This document shows positions 5,908-27,800 of a stretch of 64,000 bases of DNA, in pieces. Source of the stretch: Colwellia sp. (GTDB lineage: Bacteria; Pseudomonadota; Gammaproteobacteria; Enterobacterales; Alteromonadaceae). The notes beneath the pieces were generated by a model. That model had not been told where the DNA came from and made no database searches. It saw only the letters and a program-made list of their open reading frames with translations. Numbering within the stretch: position 1 is the stretch's first letter; each line of letters opens with the position of its first letter. A program made the position numbers and the translations under genes. The DNA is taken from NCBI GenBank assembly GCA_047633255.1, contig JBLIEW010000009.1, positions 39,056 through 103,055 of the forward strand, given 5' to 3'.

Positions 5908-6552
5908 ATGATGAGTTTTTTTAAGAAAATATTTAACAAAGAAGCACAAACTCAACGGAAATTAACTCACGTTAACCAACTTTTAGTGGGTGATATTATT
6001 GTATTAACAGATAGTTTTGCACTACCTCAAGTATTACAAGGTCAACAGTTTCAAGTGACCGCGGTTAATAGCTATGAATACGAACAAAATACACAAACTG
6101 AATGGTCGTTGCAGGGTAATGATGAACTCGCTATATTTTTATCTTTAGAAATTGATGACACCACCGAGCTAAAGTTTTCATTAAAAATCGAACATGAAGA
6201 TGTTGAATCGTTATTCGATCTAGATGACTTTTCACAAATATTTGATGAACCCGGTGAAGCCTTTTTAAACCGCCAAGCTGATAATGACGTCACTTCAACT
6301 TGGAGTAGTGAACAATACCAGCAAAACATTTTTGCAAAAGTGGGTTACTTTCATCGAAAAGATCATCGCAGTGAAGAGCTCTCAGCCTATGAAGGTGAAG
6401 GCTCTGGTGAACAACTTGAACTATACACATTATATAATGAAGATCAAAGTAAAGGCGTAGATGTTGAAGTGTGGCAAGATGGTGATACTGATGTGTTTTT
6501 AACCTTATTTAGACCCTTAACTGATATTATTGATATGTACCCGGCGAGTTAG
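5908..6552 (+). CDS. Acidic conserved hypothetical protein (YjfK/DUF2491- or DUF4178-like)
   Basis: 214-aa ORF with RBS; very acidic, beta-rich; position after PspA homologue. Family label inferred from context. Confidence 0.55.
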   Translation: MMSFFKKIFNKEAQTQRKLTHVNQLLVGDIIVLTDSFALPQVLQGQQFQVTAVNSYEYEQNTQTEWSLQGNDELAIFLSLEIDDTTELKFSLKIEHEDVESLFDLDDFSQIFDEPGEAFLNRQADNDVTSTWSSEQYQQNIFAKVGYFHRKDHRSEELSAYEGEGSGEQLELYTLYNEDQSKGVDVEVWQDGDTDVFLTLFRPLTDIIDMYPAS

Positions 6553-6567
6553 GAACTAGGAAATAAT

Positions 6568-6933
6568 ATGACAAAAGCTAATACTTCATCTATCCCGACA
6601 ATAAAAGATAGAAAAATCCCTGATAAATGGCAGTCTTCGGTCAAAGCAATAAAAGCGGTACAAGTTGCATTTGATATGGATGAAAAAATTCAGTTATATA
6701 TTAGAAAACAAGCACTTGACGCAGGACTTAGCCCATCAGATCAAATTCGTGATATTTTAGGGTTACCCATTAATAAACGGCCAAAACGCCCTCGGCTAAC
6801 TGTCAGTTTAGCACTAAGTGATTATCAGTTATTAGCGGATAAATATGGTTTAGAGGCTAAACAACAACTTGATATCAAGAGAAAGTTAATGGAAGAGCTC
6901 ATTGAATCGGTCAACCTAAGTGACAACAAATAA
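6568..6933 (+). CDS. Putative tandem ribbon-helix-helix DNA-binding protein
   Basis: AVQVAFDM..IRKQALDAGLSPSDQIRDIL and RPRLTVSL..LLADKYGL both fit the CopG-type RHH pattern. Confidence 0.65.
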   Translation: MTKANTSSIPTIKDRKIPDKWQSSVKAIKAVQVAFDMDEKIQLYIRKQALDAGLSPSDQIRDILGLPINKRPKRPRLTVSLALSDYQLLADKYGLEAKQQLDIKRKLMEELIESVNLSDNK

Positions 6934-20466: not shown

Positions 20467-20624
20467 AAAACAGCGTTATTACTCAAAGGTAAAGTTGAAA
20501 AATTGCATTAATGAAACTAACCTTTTGCAGTAGGTATGTCTACGAATTACGCTCATACTTAATCAAAATTGTGATAAACTTGATTAATTTTAGCACATGT
20601 TTTAGCGAATGCTTGAGGGCTCTA

Positions 20625-21962
20625 TTGTCAACTAACACCACTCACCCATTAACAGACACATCAACTCTTGATATTTATCTTGTGGGTGGCGCTGTCCGTG
20701 ACAAACTATTAAATCGAACAGTAAAAGATAACGATTATTTAGTTGTTGGCGCGACAGTCGAACAAATGTTGTCGTTAGGTTTTATCCAAGTAGGCAAAGA
20801 TTTCCCTGTTTTTTTACACCCAAAAACCAAACAAGAATACGCGCTAGCTCGCACTGAACGTAAACAAGGCCAAGGCTACACAGGTTTTGATTGTTATGCC
20901 GCACCTGATGTAACGATTGAACAAGATTTGTTACGACGCGACCTTACCGTTAACGCTATAGCAATGAGTGAAAACGGTACACTTATCGATCCCTACCATG
21001 GTCAAAAAGACTTAGAAAATAGAGTTTTGCGCCATGTAAGTAATGCTTTTATTGAAGATCCCTTAAGGGTATTACGTGTCGCCCGATTCGCTGCTCGTTA
21101 TCACAACGAGGGGTTTACCATCGCAGACGAAACAATGGCCTTAATGACACAAATTAGTCTTAGCGGTGAACTGGCTACCTTAAGCGCAGAGCGTGTTTGG
21201 CAAGAAATGCAGCGTGCCCTGTCTGAAGGCAACGATGAAAAAAGTGATGAAGGCGGAGTTGAAGATAACGCCAATGAACAACATCCAGAAATATTCTTTG
21301 AAGTGTTACATCAATGCCAAGCATTGAAAGCACTATGGCCTGAACTTGATATTTTATGGGGAGTTCCTAACCCCGCAGAATGGCATCCTGAAATTTGTAG
21401 TGGTGTTCATACCATGATGGTATTACAACAAGCGGTTTTACTTACCACTAATAATAAAAACAAAACAGCTATTCGCTTTGCCGCTTTATGCCATGACCTT
21501 GGTAAAGGCTTAACCGCAGACGATCTTTTGCCTAGTCATCGCGGACATGAAAAGTCTGGTCTGCCCTTAGTAGAGAAAATTTCAAAACAACTTAGAGTAC
21601 CTAATTACTGCAAACAATTAGCCTTAAAAGTATGTGAGCACCATTTGCATTGTCATAAAGCTTTTCAACTAAAAGCTAGCACCTTGCTACGAATTTTTAA
21701 TCAGTTAGATGTTTGGCGGAAACCTCAAGAGTTTGATGATTTTCTTATCGCTTGTAAAAGTGATTTTCTTGGCCGCCTTGGTTTTGAAAATAAACCTTAC
21801 CCACAAGAGCAATACTTAAAAGACACTGCGCAAGCAGCAACGATGGTCAATGCTAAAGAGTTTGTTGAACAAGGTCTACAAGGAATAGCAATAAAAGAAG
21901 CAATGGAAAAAGCACGCTTACAGGCCATTAAAAAAATAAAACAGCAATATCAAATAGAGTAA
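20625..21962 (+). CDS. cca: Multifunctional CCA tRNA nucleotidyltransferase with HD domain
   Basis: YLVGGAVRD, EYALARTE, DLLRRDLTVNA, EDPLRVLRVARF, LCHDLGKG; likely start TTG 20625 after GAGGG. Confidence 0.95.
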   Translation: MSTNTTHPLTDTSTLDIYLVGGAVRDKLLNRTVKDNDYLVVGATVEQMLSLGFIQVGKDFPVFLHPKTKQEYALARTERKQGQGYTGFDCYAAPDVTIEQDLLRRDLTVNAIAMSENGTLIDPYHGQKDLENRVLRHVSNAFIEDPLRVLRVARFAARYHNEGFTIADETMALMTQISLSGELATLSAERVWQEMQRALSEGNDEKSDEGGVEDNANEQHPEIFFEVLHQCQALKALWPELDILWGVPNPAEWHPEICSGVHTMMVLQQAVLLTTNNKNKTAIRFAALCHDLGKGLTADDLLPSHRGHEKSGLPLVEKISKQLRVPNYCKQLALKVCEHHLHCHKAFQLKASTLLRIFNQLDVWRKPQEFDDFLIACKSDFLGRLGFENKPYPQEQYLKDTAQAATMVNAKEFVEQGLQGIAIKEAMEKARLQAIKKIKQQYQIE

Positions 21963-22047
21963 CCGTTCATCGCCAATGCCAAGATAATCATGACCCTTGA
22001 AATATAAAAGTAATCAATTGAGCACTATATTCACTTTTGCAACCTTT

Positions 22048-22069
22048 CTGACTGTAAAAAACCTGACAC
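22048..22069 (+). repeat. Direct repeat, left copy (CTGACTGTAAAAAACCTGACAC)
   Basis: Near-identical to 24578-24600. Confidence 0.75.
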
Positions 22070-22081
22070 TTAAATATATTT

Positions 22082-22520
22082 ATTTCCGCTTTAGCGCAGC
22101 AAGGGAACATTGGCACTAACATTTATTAATGCCAAGAACTAAACCTGTTGGGATTTTGGTTAATCGTCGCTTTTGCCAATTGCTGACCTAAATCAGTCAT
22201 CAAAATTAGGCTGCTTTATGTTCACTTTGATACGAATATAGCGGACGTTAGCATTTGAGAATTCAAACTGAAAATAGTTGTATGTTTTGATCTACAGCGG
22301 ACATGGCTGAATAAACACATTACGTTAAAAGCTTCCTGATAGCAGTCGTTCAGCATAGATGAACAAAGCTGTTTCTTGTCGATGATTTTGTACCAATACC
22401 TGTTAAGTCTTACTGGGAACAAAGCCACCATTACCGCCAGTCACTTCTGAATTATTAACGGTCACTTAGTGCGCAAAGTTGACGTAACCATTTGAAAAGC
22501 TTAATGTCAGTTTTTAGCGA
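22082..22520. repeat. Stack of about 8 degenerate ~30-bp palindromic sites (consensus about ATGTCNGCT-N8-11-AGCNGACRT)
   Basis: Copies at 22082, 22162, 22218, ~22275-22304, ~22325-22350, 22405, 22457 and 22503; aligned by eye. Confidence 0.6.
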
Positions 22521-22582
22521 TTTTAAATTGTTGGATAGTTTAACCAAACCAATATTTTTGACTAGTTTTAACGGAAAATTGA

Positions 22583-23032
22583 ATGAAACCTTTACAAGGT
22601 AAAGTTGCTCTTGTCACAGGAGCAAGTCGTGGTATAGGAAAAGGGATTGCCCTTAGCTTGGGTGAAGCTGGGGCAACAGTATACATTACAGGAAGAACAG
22701 TCAAGAAAGGTAAATCCGCTTCATGTCTTTCTGGAACAATACATCAAACAGTTGAAGAAGTTCGTAAATTGGGTGGCAAATGTATCGCTATTCAATGTGA
22801 TCACCGTATTGATTCTGAAGTGAAGGCGGTGTTTAGACGAATTAGTGCAGAGAATAATAATCTTAATATTTTGGTTAATAATGTTTGGGCCGGTTACGAA
22901 CATTACACTGATGGTACTGAGTTTTGGAATGAAAAAGAATTTTGGACTTTACCAACTTCACGATGGGATTCTATGTTCCAGTCAGGGCCAACTAGCGGAA
23001 TAATTTGGTTTTTCTTCGTAGGTTTTTTTTAA
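22583..23032 (+). pseudogene. Truncated SDR oxidoreductase (DHRS1-like), N-terminal half only
   Basis: VTGASRGIG, ILVNNVW; homology appears to end at WDSMFQSG (~22987); no YxxxK catalytic motif. Confidence 0.8.
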
Positions 23033-23891
23033 TCTTTACTCGATGTTTTTGAAAAACTTTATCAAGATTCTGTAAACTCCAAAGTATAAAATAATAACTA
23101 ACAATTCTTTTGCGTTTAGTGCTATTTTTCTTTGTAGGATTTCTTTGTAGGTAGCTATAATACCTTTCTAACTCTTTTCGTTTTCGGCTTTGTTTGGCAA
23201 ACTCATCAGTATTGATTTTATCTGAAATAAAGTTTACAACGAGTGCTTTTAAGTAACCTATATGACTAATAGATTCAATTACTTGGTGGCCAACACCATA
23301 GAATTTTAAATAATTTGTTTTACTTGGGTAATTTAATGCGCACTCTTTGTCAGCGGAACAAAAGGGATCGTAAATCAGTGTTATTTCACCATCAAAGCTA
23401 TTGCAATAATTAAAGTCATATTTGGTATCAATTCTTTTAGGTGTTACTTTTGGTGTGATGAGAAGTAACCTGTCTAAATGTAATTGTTCAGCATAATGGG
23501 AAGCGGCATATGCTCCCATGCTCGCTCCATAACCTAAGCGCTCTGGGAAAATTTTTAAATGCCGTGATAATTCTGCAATATGCACTTGGCTTGATTCATT
23601 TAGAAACCAGTGTGCATCTTCAACAGCAGAAAAAGCGATGATATTGATTTGCATTTTCTTAAAAAATTCAAATGCCCAAGCAGATCTGCCTTTTATAACC
23701 TCACTCTGACTAAGTACATAACCCGCAGGAGAAAATGTTATCATGATGGGCTGTTCATAAGAAAAAATATGATACTCGACAAGTAGCTTGTCTAAAGATA
23801 GTCGTGTCGAATTATTAAGAGCTAGCATAATTATTAAGTCTAAATTGACTGTGAGTATAAGTAATATAAACACCCTATCCGATATAATCAA
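22992..23891 (-). CDS. AT-rich alpha/beta-hydrolase-fold hypothetical protein
   Basis: YGASMGAY nucleophile elbow, later IYDP and GVGH; true start uncertain (TTG 23891, ATG 23828 or later). Confidence 0.6.
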   Translation of the reverse strand: MIISDRVFILLILTVNLDLIIMLALNNSTRLSLDKLLVEYHIFSYEQPIMITFSPAGYVLSQSEVIKGRSAWAFEFFKKMQINIIAFSAVEDAHWFLNESSQVHIAELSRHLKIFPERLGYGASMGAYAASHYAEQLHLDRLLLITPKVTPKRIDTKYDFNYCNSFDGEITLIYDPFCSADKECALNYPSKTNYLKFYGVGHQVIESISHIGYLKALVVNFISDKINTDEFAKQSRKRKELERYYSYLQRNPTKKNSTKRKRIVSYYFILWSLQNLDKVFQKHRVKIKKNLRRKTKLFR

Positions 23892-23918
23892 TCCATAATG
23901 TGAACGAAAAAAATCTCC

Positions 23919-24263
23919 TTATAGCGATGACATCAAACCAATAAGCAAAGCCGCATTGTCTGCCATACGTCTAGCACCACAGCTTGGACAAAAACCGCGT
24001 TTCTTGCAGCTAAAAACCACTAGCCGTTCGTGATGACAATGCTCGCATTGCACCCGTAAGAAAACATGTTCAAGGCGACCACATGTTAGAAATGCTTCGA
24101 ATTCCGCCTGTACATAGGACGGCAATGGCGTACCTTGTGCCGCAAGCAGCGATTGAAATTCGTCATAGTGACGTTCAACAAGTTGATAAAGTAGTGTTTG
24201 CTCAGGTTGATGGCGTTGGTATTTGAAGCGTTCACCGTTGCTGGCTGTCCCTGCCTGCTGCAT
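23919..24263 (-). mobile_element. IS91/ISCR-family transposase remnant (N-terminal zinc-binding domain only)
   Basis: YQRHQPEQTLLYQLVE..CGRLE..FLRVQCEHC..FSCKKRGFCPSCGARRMA, typical of ISCR2/ISVsa3-like Tnp; breaks after AALLI, no HUH domain. Confidence 0.88.
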
Positions 24264-24306
24264 TTTAGTTTCTTTTGTTCACATTCCCTAGTGATGCATT
24301 AAGTGT

Positions 24307-24328
24307 AGACTATATTGTGGCATAGTCT
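24307..24328. repeat. 7-bp hairpin upstream of the transposase remnant (candidate terIS)
   Basis: AGACTAT-attgtggc-ATAGTCT; the terIS role is inferred from position only. Confidence 0.45.
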
Positions 24329-24346
24329 CTTCAGCGACTAATAACA

Positions 24347-24502
24347 AATGACTGTAATGAGCTTAAACCTGCCTCACAGACATGCTATATATTTTGGTTA
24401 GTATTTCGCTGTATATCATCATGGTTTTGCTAATGCTTAATCTCAGCTATTGGCTAGTAGCCGAAGTATCAATTAACTCACTCATAGCTTCCGCTAGCGC
24501 AC
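24347..24502. repeat. Second stack of degenerate palindromic sites
   Basis: AATGACTGTA-ATGAGCTTAA-ACCTGCC (24347), AATCTCAGCT-ATTGGCTAGT-AGCCGAAGT (24439), GCTTCCGCTAGCGCAC (24487). Confidence 0.55.
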
Positions 24503-24577
24503 TTTCTTGACAAAAAATAATACACAAACTTTTTTTATTAATTAAGCTAATTATAAGGTCAGTAATATGCCCTTTAG

Positions 24578-24600
24578 CTGACTGTAAAAAATTCTGACAC
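24578..24600 (+). repeat. Direct repeat, right copy (CTGACTGTAAAAAATTCTGACAC)
   Basis: Near-identical to 22048-22069. Confidence 0.75.
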
Positions 24601-24781
24601 GTTGAAAAACTTATGTAATGCGCACAAACTGCTCTAAAACATTATCGAACTCAATAATTTTTGATTAAGCCTCAATCTTATATTTTCAAGTTAAATTTAG
24701 CTCAAGAACCGTGGGTATCACTTGTCTTTCTAGCTGAGATAGCCTCACTAATAATATCTATTCACACTATAGTATTTAAAC

Positions 24782-24819
24782 AATCAGTGACAAACTAAAT
24801 GAATTGATTGTCACTGATT
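24782..24819 (-). terminator. 12-bp inverted repeat downstream of putA
   Basis: AATCAGTGACAA-N14-TTGTCACTGATT, just past the putA stop. Confidence 0.55.
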
Positions 24820-24836
24820 ATAAAGGATATTTTTAC

Positions 24837-27800
24837 CTACCCTTCCTCTTCTTCCACTAGCGTCATTAATGACGTATTTCCACCCGATGCGGTGGTATCA
24901 ATACTAATAGTTTTTTCTGTTAGTAATCGTTGAATTAGCTTGTCAAAGTACTCAGAAGTAATCACAGGTAATATTGCACCATTACGCTGTGATAATTTTT
25001 CACTCATATAATGTTTTCTGTCACAATTACTATCCACCACGACGCCCGCTAAAGCAGGGTCTGCCAACATAGTTTCCAAATGACTTAATTTGGCCACTTG
25101 AAATACGCCTTTATCAGCACCGGTCGATATAAATTTATCTCTAAACGCTAGCGCCTCTTCATAAAATAAATCATAAACAACTGCTATCACGCTATTACCC
25201 GTCGCTAACGCAGTCACTAATGAAATCACCCAAAAATGGAAACTAACTTTTTCATCGGCAAAACAGATTATTACACCTCTGTTTTCCAAATAAATAATAT
25301 TTGATTCACCAGTAGGACCGGGTAAAACTTTAGGCTTTTTAAGGCGCTTTTCAATATTAATTAACTGACCACGAGCCGCCGCTAAAGTACGATTTAAATC
25401 ATCGGCTAAATCATCTACAATTTCCACATGAGCAATTTTTGCTAATAATTGGCGAACACAAGAAATACGCGTATTCAGCTCAGTTACACGCCAAGTTTTT
25501 TCTGCTTTATCTGCCTGATTCATTAACAGTTCAGCTTCTTGCTTAGCGACAATATCGCCGGTTAACGCAATCGCTTGCGAAGGTAAAAAATTAAATTCAT
25601 CTTCATTGGGTGTCGCTTTTTCTTTTACTAAACGTGTTAGGTAATTTGGTCCACCGGCTTTAGGGCCAGTACCCGAAAGTCCTCGGCCACCAAAAGGTTG
25701 CACGCCTACGATAGCGCCTATCATATTACGATTTATGTACACATTACCCGCACGTGAGAGCTTAGCTAATTCTATGGCTCTGTGTTCAATACGCGTATGG
25801 ATACCCATTGTTAAACCAAATCCTGTGCCATTAACTTTTTCAATGACTTGTTCAATTTCATTGCCTTTGAAACGAACAACATGGACGCAAGGGCCAAATA
25901 CTTCTTTAGTTAATACATCAATATCGCTGATTTCGTACAAGCGCGGGGCAAAGAAGAAGTGACCCTCTTGGGCATCACTTTTGTCACCAAATAAAGCACA
26001 CTGATACAATAACTTACCATTTTTTTCCATATAGTCGCTGTGAGCGTTAAGGGCATCAAGCGCTTTTTGATCGATTACAGGGCCAATATCAGTACTTAAT
26101 TTTGACGGATCACCAATATATAACTCAGCTAAGGCACCTTTAAGCATGGTAATGACTGTATCGGCAATATCTTCTTGTAGGAAGAGTACTCTTAATGCTG
26201 AACACCGTTGACCGGCTGATTGAAAGCCCGATGAGATAACATCATCTACTACCTGTTCAGGTAAAGCAGTTGAGTCAACTATCATGCAGTTTTGACCACC
26301 AGTTTCTGCAATAAGTGGTACTTGATCACCACCACGCTCCACTAAGGTTTGTGAAATTCGGGTTCCAGTTTCAGTAGAGCCAGTAAACATTACCGCTGAA
26401 ACGCGCTCATCTGGCACAATAACTTTACCAACAACACTTCCTTGGGCAATAACTGCTTGCACTACATCTTGAGGTAAACCCACTGATTGCATAAGTTCAA
26501 TAGCGCGTAATGCAATTAACCCTGTTTGTTCTGCTGGTTTTGCTATGACCGTATTACCGGTAACAATAGCCGCTGCCACTTGCCCTAAAAATATTGCCAA
26601 CGGGAAATTCCATGGGCTAATACATAACACTACACCGCGGGCTTCTATGCGTTCATCGTCACTTAATTCAATAGCACGCGCAGCATAATATCGACAAAAA
26701 TCAACCGCTTCTCGTACTTCATCAATACCATCTTGCGCAATTTTCCCCGCTTCTTTAATACAAAGAGCAATTAGCTCATTCATATGACGCTCTAAAATAT
26801 CGCCAATACGGCAGAGCAAATCGGCTCGCTCATTCACTGGTGTTTCGGACCATGAAACAAAGGCACTCTCAGCTTTGTCTATCATAATTCGCATATCATC
26901 TTCAGAGTGATGATAATGAAAGCCTATTATTTCACTATGATTAGCGGGATTTTTTACCGCATCGGCGCCCTCAGGCACTTCATTTTTATTAAGTAAATGG
27001 CCAACAAACCAGGTATCTAACGCTGATTTCAATGGTGTAATTTCATTAATATCAGATAAATCTATTCCCTTAGAGTTATCTCTACTTGCTAAGCCATCAC
27101 TACCGTTAAGCTTATTTTCATTACGGTACAGATCAATGGGCATAATAATTTGCCCATTATATTTTTTCTTCAAACGCTGTGTTTTCTCTACCGGATCTTC
27201 AAGTAACGACTCTACCGGTTGCGATTCATCTACAATGGCATTAACAAATGACGAGTTCGCACCGTTTTCTAATAATCGACGTACTAGGTAAGCAAGTAAA
27301 CCTTCATGATGCCCTACAGGCGCGTAAATGCGGCACTGGATACCATTACCAGAAACAATTTGATCATATAATGAATCACCCATTCCATGTAAACACTGAA
27401 ATTCATAACCTTGCTTATCATCACCTGCTAGCTCAACGATCGTGGCAGCGGTATAAGCATTATGAGTAGCGAACTGCGGATAAATACTGTCGCGATAATC
27501 GAGTAGTTTATTAGCGCAAGCATGGTAAGAAACATCCGTTGATGATTTTCGAGTAAATACTGGAAAGTGTGTCATACCGTCTTTCTGAGCATTTTTAATC
27601 TCTGTGTCCCAATAAGCGCCTTTTACTAGACGCACCATCATACGACGGTTAGTTCGCAGCGTTAGTTCTCTAAGCCATTCAACAACAAACATTGCCCGCT
27701 TTTGATACGCTTGCAGTGCCATACCAAAGCCTTGCCAATCGCCTAAATCACTATCTGTAAAGACCGCTTCAATAATATCAAGAGAGATATCTAAGCGTTC

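Follow-up and report, generated by a model that had tools for sequence, protein, structure and literature searches.

A recombination scar between a truncated SDR gene and an intact, predicted hydrolase gene in an islet with an ISCR-like remnant on a Colwellia chromosome

The attC sites of integron cassettes are imperfect palindromes of about 60–140 nt that form a hairpin as single strands and carry the core sites R″ (RYYYAAC) and R′ (GTTRRRY). In ISCR elements, variable genes are located downstream of the oriIS end, separated from it by spacers of 0–1211 bp, and outward promoters belong to this layout (PMC6218425; PMC13393415). For ISCR elements, transposition still lacks an experimental demonstration (PMC6218425). 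Members of the IS91 family use GTTC/CTTG targets, do not generate a target duplication, and can carry flanking DNA along up to surrogate ends (PMC13181058).

The locus analyzed here belongs to a 64,000-nt stretch of a Colwellia sp. contig (JBLIEW010000009.1), which is termed the window in the following. Between the convergent genes cca (20511–21962) and putA (28694–24837) lies a spacer of 2.87 kb, and within it an islet of about 2.3 kb that is a mosaic of three unrelated pieces: the front part of a gene for a short-chain dehydrogenase (SDR), a hydrolase gene, and an ISCR-like element. The features of the region are as follows.

22048–22070, plus strand: motif A (CTGACTGTAAAAAACCTGACAC), left copy, followed by TTCCGCTTTAGCGCA (22084–22098)
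22242–22440, no strand: non-coding sequence, conserved and multi-copy, at the left of the segment shared across species (metagenome contigs)
22583–22987, plus strand: 5′ 135 codons (405 nt) of a DHRS1-like SDR gene, apparent pseudogene (Pfam adh_short, alignments)
22973–23003, no strand: joint of SDR fragment and hydrolase gene (3′ end) (sequence, SDR and hydrolase alignments)
22988–22991, no strand: CCAA, assignable to neither parent; filler or native 3′ flank of the hydrolase gene (homology limits on both sides)
22992–23828, minus strand: predicted alpha/beta-hydrolase-fold gene, intact, 278 aa, stop included (35 homologues, alignment, structure model)
23829–23852, minus strand: spacer of 24 nt from the ISCR right end to the hydrolase ATG, beginning with ACAGTCA (comparison with L017)
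23853–23942, minus strand: right (oriIS-side) terminal 90 nt of the ISCR-like element (87% identical to L017 5607–5696)
23939–23942, minus strand: internal deletion joint of the ISCR-like element (4-nt microhomology ATTG)
23940–24263, minus strand: first 108 codons of an ISCR/IS91 transposase gene, Zn-binding domain (Pfam PF14319, NCBIfam)
24264–24364, minus strand: left (terIS-side) end of the ISCR-like element, GCTCATTACAGTCA... (boundary common to Paraglaciecola L012/L013 and X4 contigs)
24365–24506, minus strand: dispersed repeat of Colwelliaceae, about 110–150 nt, ending in TTCCGCTAGCGCAC (24489–24502) (copies of relatives)
24578–24600, plus strand: motif A, right copy (motif search)

The locus shares several properties with ISCR elements. 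Its two ends differ from each other, the left one having a subterminal palindrome; a cargo gene of unrelated origin follows oriIS within a few bases on the same strand; and the cargo is bounded on its far side by a truncated gene. The transposase, of which 108 codons with the N-terminal Zn-binding domain remain after loss of the catalytic domain, would likewise be of the HUH rolling-circle type. Imperfect direct repeats bracketing element and cargo are reminiscent of the duplicated 3′-CS around ISCR1 in complex class 1 integrons. In contrast to ISCR elements, the element in the window is dead, since 1.28 kb of its transposase gene are deleted, and the cargo, which the structure model places near esterases and O-acetyltransferases, is not a resistance gene and resides on the chromosome of a marine psychrophile without integron context. 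What is new here is that a marine chromosome holds such a dead relative of the ISCRs next to a cargo gene unrelated to resistance. If the link between element and gene is true, this cold-marine Colwellia, in which a non-resistance cargo occupies the classical downstream position of an ISCR-like rolling-circle element, would show the gene-capture layout of antibiotic-resistance loci in a natural, non-clinical setting.

The SDR open reading frame starts at 22583 and was called as 149 codons with a stop at 23032, its tail consisting of antisense hydrolase sequence. It has thousands of SDR relatives, several of which are named DHRS1-like in their sources. Pfam adh_short matched over profile positions 1–88 of 195, which is the Rossmann half only. 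Compared to classical DHRS1-like SDRs, whose full-length homologues have about 260 aa, the fragment thus has no complete Rossmann fold and lacks the catalytic Ser-Tyr-Lys region. In an alignment with 14 homologues, M131, F132, and G135 were invariant and homology ended after G135 (GGG, 22985–22987), where the homologues continue with G-[V/A/I]-R-A-H-Y and the window with P-T-S-G-I-I-W. At the DNA level, homology to the 82%-identical full-length homologue L007 (81.5% over 411 nt) stops at 22986/22987. A tblastn search with three full-length SDRs did not find the 3′ half of the gene anywhere in the 64-kb window. Between the window and four strain variants (L133, L155–L157), the fragment differed by five nonsynonymous changes, one nonsense change, which is carried by one strain lineage, and no synonymous change; it looks like a dead pseudogene by these counts, which are small. 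SDR relatives adjoin genes for GH16 glycoside hydrolases, a TonB-dependent receptor, and an MFS transporter (L007, L135). A second truncated SDR, P0039, also of 149 aa, was considered as evidence for a common breakpoint and was ruled out, as it is a frameshifted full-length gene; the truncated SDR P0061 is cut at another place than the SDR in the window.

On the other side of the joint, DNA homology to the locus of the nearest hydrolase family member (P0002, 76% aa identity, locus L004) extends exactly to the hydrolase stop codon, whose TAG is the complement of 22992–22994. The C-termini, ...RRKTELLR* in P0002 and ...RRKTKLFR* in the window, indicate by alignment that this TAG is the native stop of the gene. 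At the gene end, the orthologue has CTTCGCTAA where the window has TTCCGCTAG, and unrelated DNA follows. Only the four bases CCAA therefore separate SDR homology from hydrolase homology within the 31 bases of the joint (ATGTTCCAGTCAGGGCCAACTAGCGGAATAA), which was base-for-base identical in independent assemblies (ENA, Logan, TARA; several samples). The original prediction of a hybrid junction, with the SDR gene cut at the GGG ending at 22987 and the stop codon of the opposite gene inside the right arm of a site-like sequence, is borne out in these respects by the alignment of full-length DHRS1-like homologues and by the native hydrolase stop 4 nt away. The joint is a real scar between the front half of an SDR gene and an intact, convergent hydrolase gene; it is a recombination scar and not a recombination site, real but ordinary. 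CTAG was ruled out as a rare signal at the joint because the window holds 156 copies. Neither alternative joints nor circular forms were present among the metagenome contigs, which cannot show rare forms.

The hydrolase gene has its ATG at 23828 and belongs to a small family of 35 clusters from marine gammaproteobacteria. None of the Pfam and NCBIfam models matched the 278-aa protein. In 16 aligned sequences, G-A-S-M-G, corresponding to a GxSxG nucleophile elbow, an Asp, and G-V-G-H were invariant; the C-terminal tail is basic and helical. A search with the AlphaFold model (pLDDT 87.5) by Foldseek yielded 264 PDB matches with E ≤ 0.001, and the top 50 were all alpha/beta-hydrolase-fold proteins with a probability of 1.0; carboxyl and feruloyl esterases and the capsule O-acetyltransferase CsaC were among the proteins matched. 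Judged from the conserved residues and the model, the protein has an alpha/beta-hydrolase fold, and its activity is possibly that of a polysaccharide O-acetyl esterase or transferase. Most relatives belong to clusters for polysaccharide synthesis; those in Moritella and L011 are located inside clusters for polysaccharides or nonulosonic acids. In the closest relative (L004), about 3 kb separate the gene from cca, and the vicinity contains neither SDR nor IS91. The C-termini and the neighbours of other homologues are different; near-identical copies all have the flanks of the window. Among the same strain variants, the gene showed four nonsynonymous, five synonymous, and no nonsense changes, and its length stays at 278 aa. 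These substitution counts are small and suggest that the hydrolase is under purifying selection. The proposal that the cargo encodes an alpha/beta-hydrolase-fold protein associated with a mobile element thus held, the element being of the ISCR/IS91 type and not an integron.

The transposase fragment was called as an open reading frame of 114 aa (24263–23919, minus strand). It matched Pfam PF14319 (Zn_Tnp_IS91) with an E-value of 1e-15, and its best NCBIfam model was ISCR clade Ia (E 8e-42, positions 19–119 of 509, 143 bits). A full-length relative with a catalytic domain is present in a Colwellia MAG (L017) and scored 408 bits with this model. With both scores falling well short of the curated cut-off (925), the element is a relative and not a member of the named ISCRs. 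The window matches L017 in two pieces, 23939–24466 (left end plus 108 codons, 85%) and 23853–23942 (last 90 nt, 87%), and at the ATTG joint between them the transposase gene has lost about 1282 bp. The oriIS end (...ACTTATACTC at 23853) was confirmed by L017 and by X4 contigs with different flanks, and the left end (GCTCATT(A/G)CAGTC near 24364) is common to L012, L013, L017, and the X4 contigs; a subterminal palindrome, AGACTATGCCACAATATAGTCT, is located there at 24306–24327. In the two right flanks that are readable in full, CTCA/ACAG in the window and CTCC/CGAG in L017, no target duplication was seen. With four nonsynonymous, no nonsense, and no synonymous changes among the strain variants, which are small counts, the transposase fragment looks dead. 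The motif at 24489 was ruled out as terminus of the element because Paraglaciecola copies and the X4 contigs place the core left end about 130 nt further inward; the stretch of 110–150 nt in between occurs without ISCR in Pseudocolwellia. A clean insertion of the L017 unit into an IS1182-family gene was rejected as well: in uninterrupted copies only the left flank continues the gene, so that these copies do not fix the exact ends of the unit.

The hydrolase gene begins 24 nt beyond the oriIS end on the same strand as the element and thus sits in the typical downstream cargo position of an ISCR. What lies beyond oriIS varies, with a GGDEF-type gene in L017 and other flanks in the X4 copies. We infer that the element may have had a role in bringing the hydrolase gene by co-mobilisation; this would require a model of circle formation plus recombination, since the gene is on the oriIS side and is not carried by simple one-ended transposition. 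The retained 90 nt contain TTGATT-17-TATATT directed toward the hydrolase gene and conserved in L017, promoter-like matches in this region being not above chance; the oriIS end may hold an outward promoter for the hydrolase gene.

According to the original prediction, the hydrolase gene is an integron-like cassette whose palindromic site, TTCCGCT...AGCGGAA, holds the stop codon and which entered the SDR gene by site-specific recombination at a secondary site. As a single gene, promoter-poor and with very short flanks, that has its stop codon at the segment edge, the hydrolase gene does resemble a cassette, the breakpoint with the stop codon in the right arm is where it was predicted, similar motifs are present at 22084 and 24489, and a tyrosine integrase adjoins a homologous A/T module in the metagenomic contig L144. 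Moreover, AGCGGA is the most islet-enriched of 2080 strand-collapsed hexamers (7 of 20 copies in 22040–24600, p 8e-6, about 0.02 after correction). Against this stands the composition of the arms. The left one, TTCCAGT, is indeed conserved SDR coding sequence (F-Q-S), and L007 has TTTCAAT at this place; the right one, AGCGGAA, overlaps the end of the hydrolase gene (F-R-stop) as stated, but the different gene end of the orthologue argues against a role as a site. The arms match at 5/7 positions across an 11-nt spacer, which is chance level: as at least 5/7 matches occur by chance in about 1.3% of placements, several such pairs are expected near any point. A perfect TTCCGCT-N(0–30)-AGCGGAA occurs nowhere in the 64-kb window. 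Folded as single-stranded DNA, the 46-nt joint stretch was no better than shuffled sequence (z +1.4 and +0.5 for the two strands), and the same holds true for the motifs at 22084 and 24489. Also, the conserved GCGCAC of the genuine module motif is absent at the joint, and the 24489 copy is not palindromic in relatives.

Other components of an integron did not turn up, either. The neighbour table, which covers about 10 kb to the left and right, listed no integrase or other tyrosine recombinase and no attI, IntI, or cassette array, and Phage_integrase had no hit in the 10 scanned open reading frames of about 290–385 aa in the window. As regards R′/R″ cores, the GTTGGCC after the stop is R′-like in 6/7 positions and has no partner, and the GTT/AAC geometry for recombination by IntI at a secondary site, as read from the sequence, fits neither strand. 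Other copies of the hydrolase gene were predicted to end in the same site; the nearest one ends differently and continues into unrelated DNA, and the remaining homologues share neither C-termini nor neighbours. We therefore regard cassette insertion as hardly credible, and the local palindromes should not be taken for recombination sites on the strength of this joint. Still far less credible is an assembly chimera. Multi-copy repeats, at which short-read contigs break, do flank the islet, but the joint is spanned, with identical sequence and even depth and in two species backgrounds, by contigs of six or more independent assemblies or runs.

In our view, the joint probably arose by illegitimate recombination in an ISCR-associated mosaic, its endpoint being held by selection for the hydrolase and the block spreading afterwards via flanking repeats. 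We infer for the joining step that the SDR/hydrolase joint, as the far edge of the ISCR cargo segment, would have been made by non-homologous or microhomology joining or by a deletion. An endpoint just outside the stop codon would have been kept because the hydrolase gene is the sole piece under selection, and the apparent palindrome would be the chance product of two coding ends. That illegitimate deletion operates in the islet is shown directly by the ATTG deletion in the ISCR-like element. The locus also has the appearance of pseudogene remnants and deletion scars in bacterial islets: the catalytic half is gone, nonsynonymous and nonsense changes have occurred, an unrelated gene abuts, and a second, microhomology-associated deletion is nearby. 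It differs from usual scars by an endpoint that is unusually tight to the stop of the neighbour and by a scarred block that is nearly unchanged in two species. Several observations do not sit easily with illegitimate joining. Four nucleotides past the stop is tighter than a single random deletion usually gives. AGCGGA and CAGTCA, the second most islet-enriched hexamer (8 of 36 copies, p 7e-5), both lie within 10 nt of the joint and of several other segment boundaries, and one or the other is found at ≤ 10 nt from most of these. The CTAGCGGAATAATTTGGT at the joint agrees in 17 of 18 bases with the left end of the L017 ISCR unit, which also abuts a truncated gene; this hit scores 14, compared to 13 for the best background hit in the window and 12 for the following one. 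GTTC, a target tetranucleotide of IS91-family members, follows the breakpoint in two SDR homologues. Finally, the hydrolase gene is on the oriIS side, beyond the reach of simple one-ended transposition.

The joint could also be the boundary of an IS91/ISCR rolling-circle event, in which an ISCR-driven unit with a surrogate terminus at the hydrolase stop was inserted at a GTTC in the SDR gene (GGG|GTTCG...) or ended next to it, and the remainder of the element together with the 3′ half of the SDR gene was later lost or rearranged. We consider this unlikely, although it would account for part of the above observations. An ISCR remnant is present in the same islet, and the IS91 family is described as using GTTC/CTTG targets without duplication and as carrying adjacent DNA up to surrogate ends (PMC13181058). 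Directly after the breakpoint codon, the homologues read GGA GTTC GA (L007) and GGC GTT(T)C GC (L154). The L017 unit abuts a truncated IS1182-family transposase gene as ...GCTGTCTA|AGCGGAATAAGTTGG (...CTA|AGCGGAATAAGTTGG), similar to CTAGCGGAATAATTTGG in the window. The terIS end, the bases directly following oriIS, and both A motifs carry ACAGTCA, in each case on the strand of the element; of TTACAGTCA, the window has three copies, likewise on this strand, one at the left end of the ISCR-like element and one in each A motif. On the other hand, oriIS and not terIS faces the hydrolase gene, which is the wrong orientation for a simple version of this event, so that additional lost copies or rearrangements must be assumed. 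The bases resembling L017 are native hydrolase codons (T-K-L-F-R-stop, compared to T-E-L-L-R-stop in the orthologue), the similarity score of 14 barely exceeds the background of 13, the CAGTCAG at the joint is on the strand opposite to the element-associated copies, and transposition has not been demonstrated experimentally for any ISCR (PMC6218425). An inversion between the 9-bp inverted repeats CTAGCGGAA (22992–23000) and TTCCGCTAG (24489–24497), which would restore the canonical order SDR|terIS-ISCR-oriIS|hydrolase, was rejected because the order repeat-TTCC..GCGCAC-preA-motif A is contiguous in the ISCR-free contigs L144, L150, and L151; a 9-mer match is expected by chance in the window (E about 5).

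The cca-putA spacer of relatives has a length of 222 bp, 667 bp, 2.5 kb (including a gene for an EndA-like nuclease), or 9.8 kb, and in contigs of abundant relatives from run X13 the cca end is followed directly by the putA end. These variable lengths and direct joins characterize the spacer as a hypervariable hot spot. The C-terminus of PutA is 75–88% identical to that of Colwellia genomes and MAGs. The strain variants L133 and L155–L157 are 98.7% identical to the window, without indels in the islet core. The same identity of 98.7% was found in runs X7 and X9, where the islet (22441–24480) is on one contig, but the sole cca of these runs is only 86% identical to the window (186 differences in 1351 nt) and putA about 82%. 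X7 contained no cca or putA with at least 90% likeness to the window. The depths of the cca and islet contigs agreed in both runs, with 68 and 80 in X7 and 5.8 and 5.1 in X9, respectively. The difference between islet and cca indicates that the block including the joint was exchanged as a unit between two Colwellia species after the joint had formed. High identity begins at about 22242 and ends at 24506, just past TTCCGCTAGCGCACTTT; beyond this position the X7 contig reads GAAGTCATC... and the window CTTGAC.... The whole block (about 22242–24506) moved in this exchange, probably by recombination through the dispersed repeat modules at its flanks, and a block of mostly dead DNA with one selected gene passed nearly unchanged between two species. 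In the metagenomes, the depth of 22070–22470 and 24348–24481 was 3–11 times the local depth. The conserved 190-nt block has a weak consensus structure (-8 kcal/mol).

The cca-putA spacer appears as a recombination hot spot built from dispersed repeat modules. Motif A has the form CTGACTGTAAAAAA-N1-2-CTGACAC and was present in 12 contigs of a metagenome scan. In the window, its two copies together with about 40 nt after each form an imperfect direct repeat of about 60 nt that brackets 22071–24577. In L144, L150, L151, and L153, the contiguous order is [110-150-nt repeat]-TTCC..GCGCAC-preA-A-N14-TTCCGCT(T)AGCGCAC, and a tyrosine integrase, a DDE transposase, an IS3-type transposase, or a resolvase is encoded beside it. 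By this order, the motifs at 22084 and 24489 are parts of a dispersed intergenic module. The half of these motifs that is conserved across relatives is GCGCAC, the 24489 copy reading GTCAGCAATGCGCAC or TTCCCCTTTGCACAC elsewhere, and the joint has the variable half TTCCGCTAG only. Folding of the 270-nt module gave z +1.2 and no attC-like or RNA structure; Rfam yielded nothing relevant and no tRNA genes were found. A dif/Xer-like site in the GTGCGC motifs was rejected, as no XerD arm is present by the dif consensus.

The TTCCGCT(N)AGCGCAC motifs, motif A, and the 110-150-nt repeat might be working sites of an undescribed module-shuffling system of Colwelliaceae, an idea to which we give little credence. 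The integrases and resolvases beside the motifs in relatives would then act in trans and join intergenic modules and single genes; the hydrolase stop would once have been in a full motif, and the SDR joint would be a half-site product at a secondary site. This is close to the original prediction, with the difference that a new system would take the place of an integron. In Pseudocolwellia, two direct copies of a 110-nt part of the repeat flank a 6-kb islet that carries genes for an SMC-like ATPase and a DUF4365 protein.

Contigs from metagenome runs were compared with the cca-putA region (window 20600-26400). In runs X7 and X9, one organism carried an islet 98.7% identical to that of the window, whereas its cca and putA genes were only 86% and ~82% identical, respectively. 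Because the islet is so much more similar than the flanking genes and the depths of the islet and cca contigs matched in both samples, the sequence comparison suggests that the islet block was recently transferred between species. Run X13 contained relatives in which cca and putA are joined directly. The features considered here are listed below.

Features in the window and in compared loci
22048-22100 and 24572-24625: motif A (CTGACTGTAAAAAA-N1-2-CTGACAC) with the sequence after it
22242-22440: non-coding block of ~190 nt, conserved in other Colwellia
22992-23828, - strand: alpha/beta-hydrolase-fold protein of 278 aa
24365-24497: Colwelliaceae repeat of ~110-150 nt; also at 477-613 and 6487-6584 of locus L137
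3540-5700 of locus L017 (Colwellia sp. DT_21 MAG): full-length but frameshifted copy of the ISCR-like element, joined to part of the 110-150-nt repeat

The region 22071-24577 is bracketed by an imperfect direct repeat of ~60 nt, which consists of motif A plus the sequence after it. Exact motif A was present in 12 metagenome contigs, and in several of these it lies in a conserved module adjoining integrase, resolvase or transposase genes. When all 2080 hexamers were ranked by enrichment in the islet (22040-24600), the top two were AGCGGA, with 7 of its 20 window copies there, and CAGTCA, with 8 of 36. The only three window copies of TTACAGTCA (22049, 24349 and 24579) are all located within the same interval on the - strand.

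In the ISCR-like element of the window, ~1282 bp of the transposase gene were deleted at ATTG (23939-23942), a 4-nt microhomology; 108 native codons of the gene remain, together with the element's final 90 nt. The left end of the element carries the fused Colwelliaceae repeat both here and in L017. The L017 copy adjoins an IS1182-family transposase gene, which is cut at ...GCTGTCTA|AGCGGAA and whose continuation was absent from the opposite side of the ISCR-like element. Pseudocolwellia sp. AS88 has this Colwelliaceae repeat twice, in direct orientation and with no ISCR, on either side of a 6-kb islet; this islet encodes an SMC/AAA ATPase (872 aa) and a DUF4365 protein and looks defence-like.

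The block at 22242-22440 showed 74-78% conservation in other Colwellia (L124, where it lies beside cca, and L149). Its metagenome depth was 3-11 times the local depth, and it is therefore a dispersed repeat. An Rfam search with this block gave no match, and its consensus structure is weak (-8 kcal/mol).

The 278-aa protein, an alpha/beta-hydrolase core followed by a basic helical tail of ~70 aa, belongs to a small family without a Pfam or NCBIfam model; relatives are found in polysaccharide and nonulosonic-acid clusters. Its fold resembles those of many esterases and also that of the capsule O-acetyltransferase CsaC. Damaged SDR copies of the same family as the islet fragment also occur elsewhere: one is truncated after ~112 codons in a TonB-receptor/MFS/GH16 locus (L135, 5001-5402), and another is frameshifted (L154, 607-1400), possibly owing to long-read errors.
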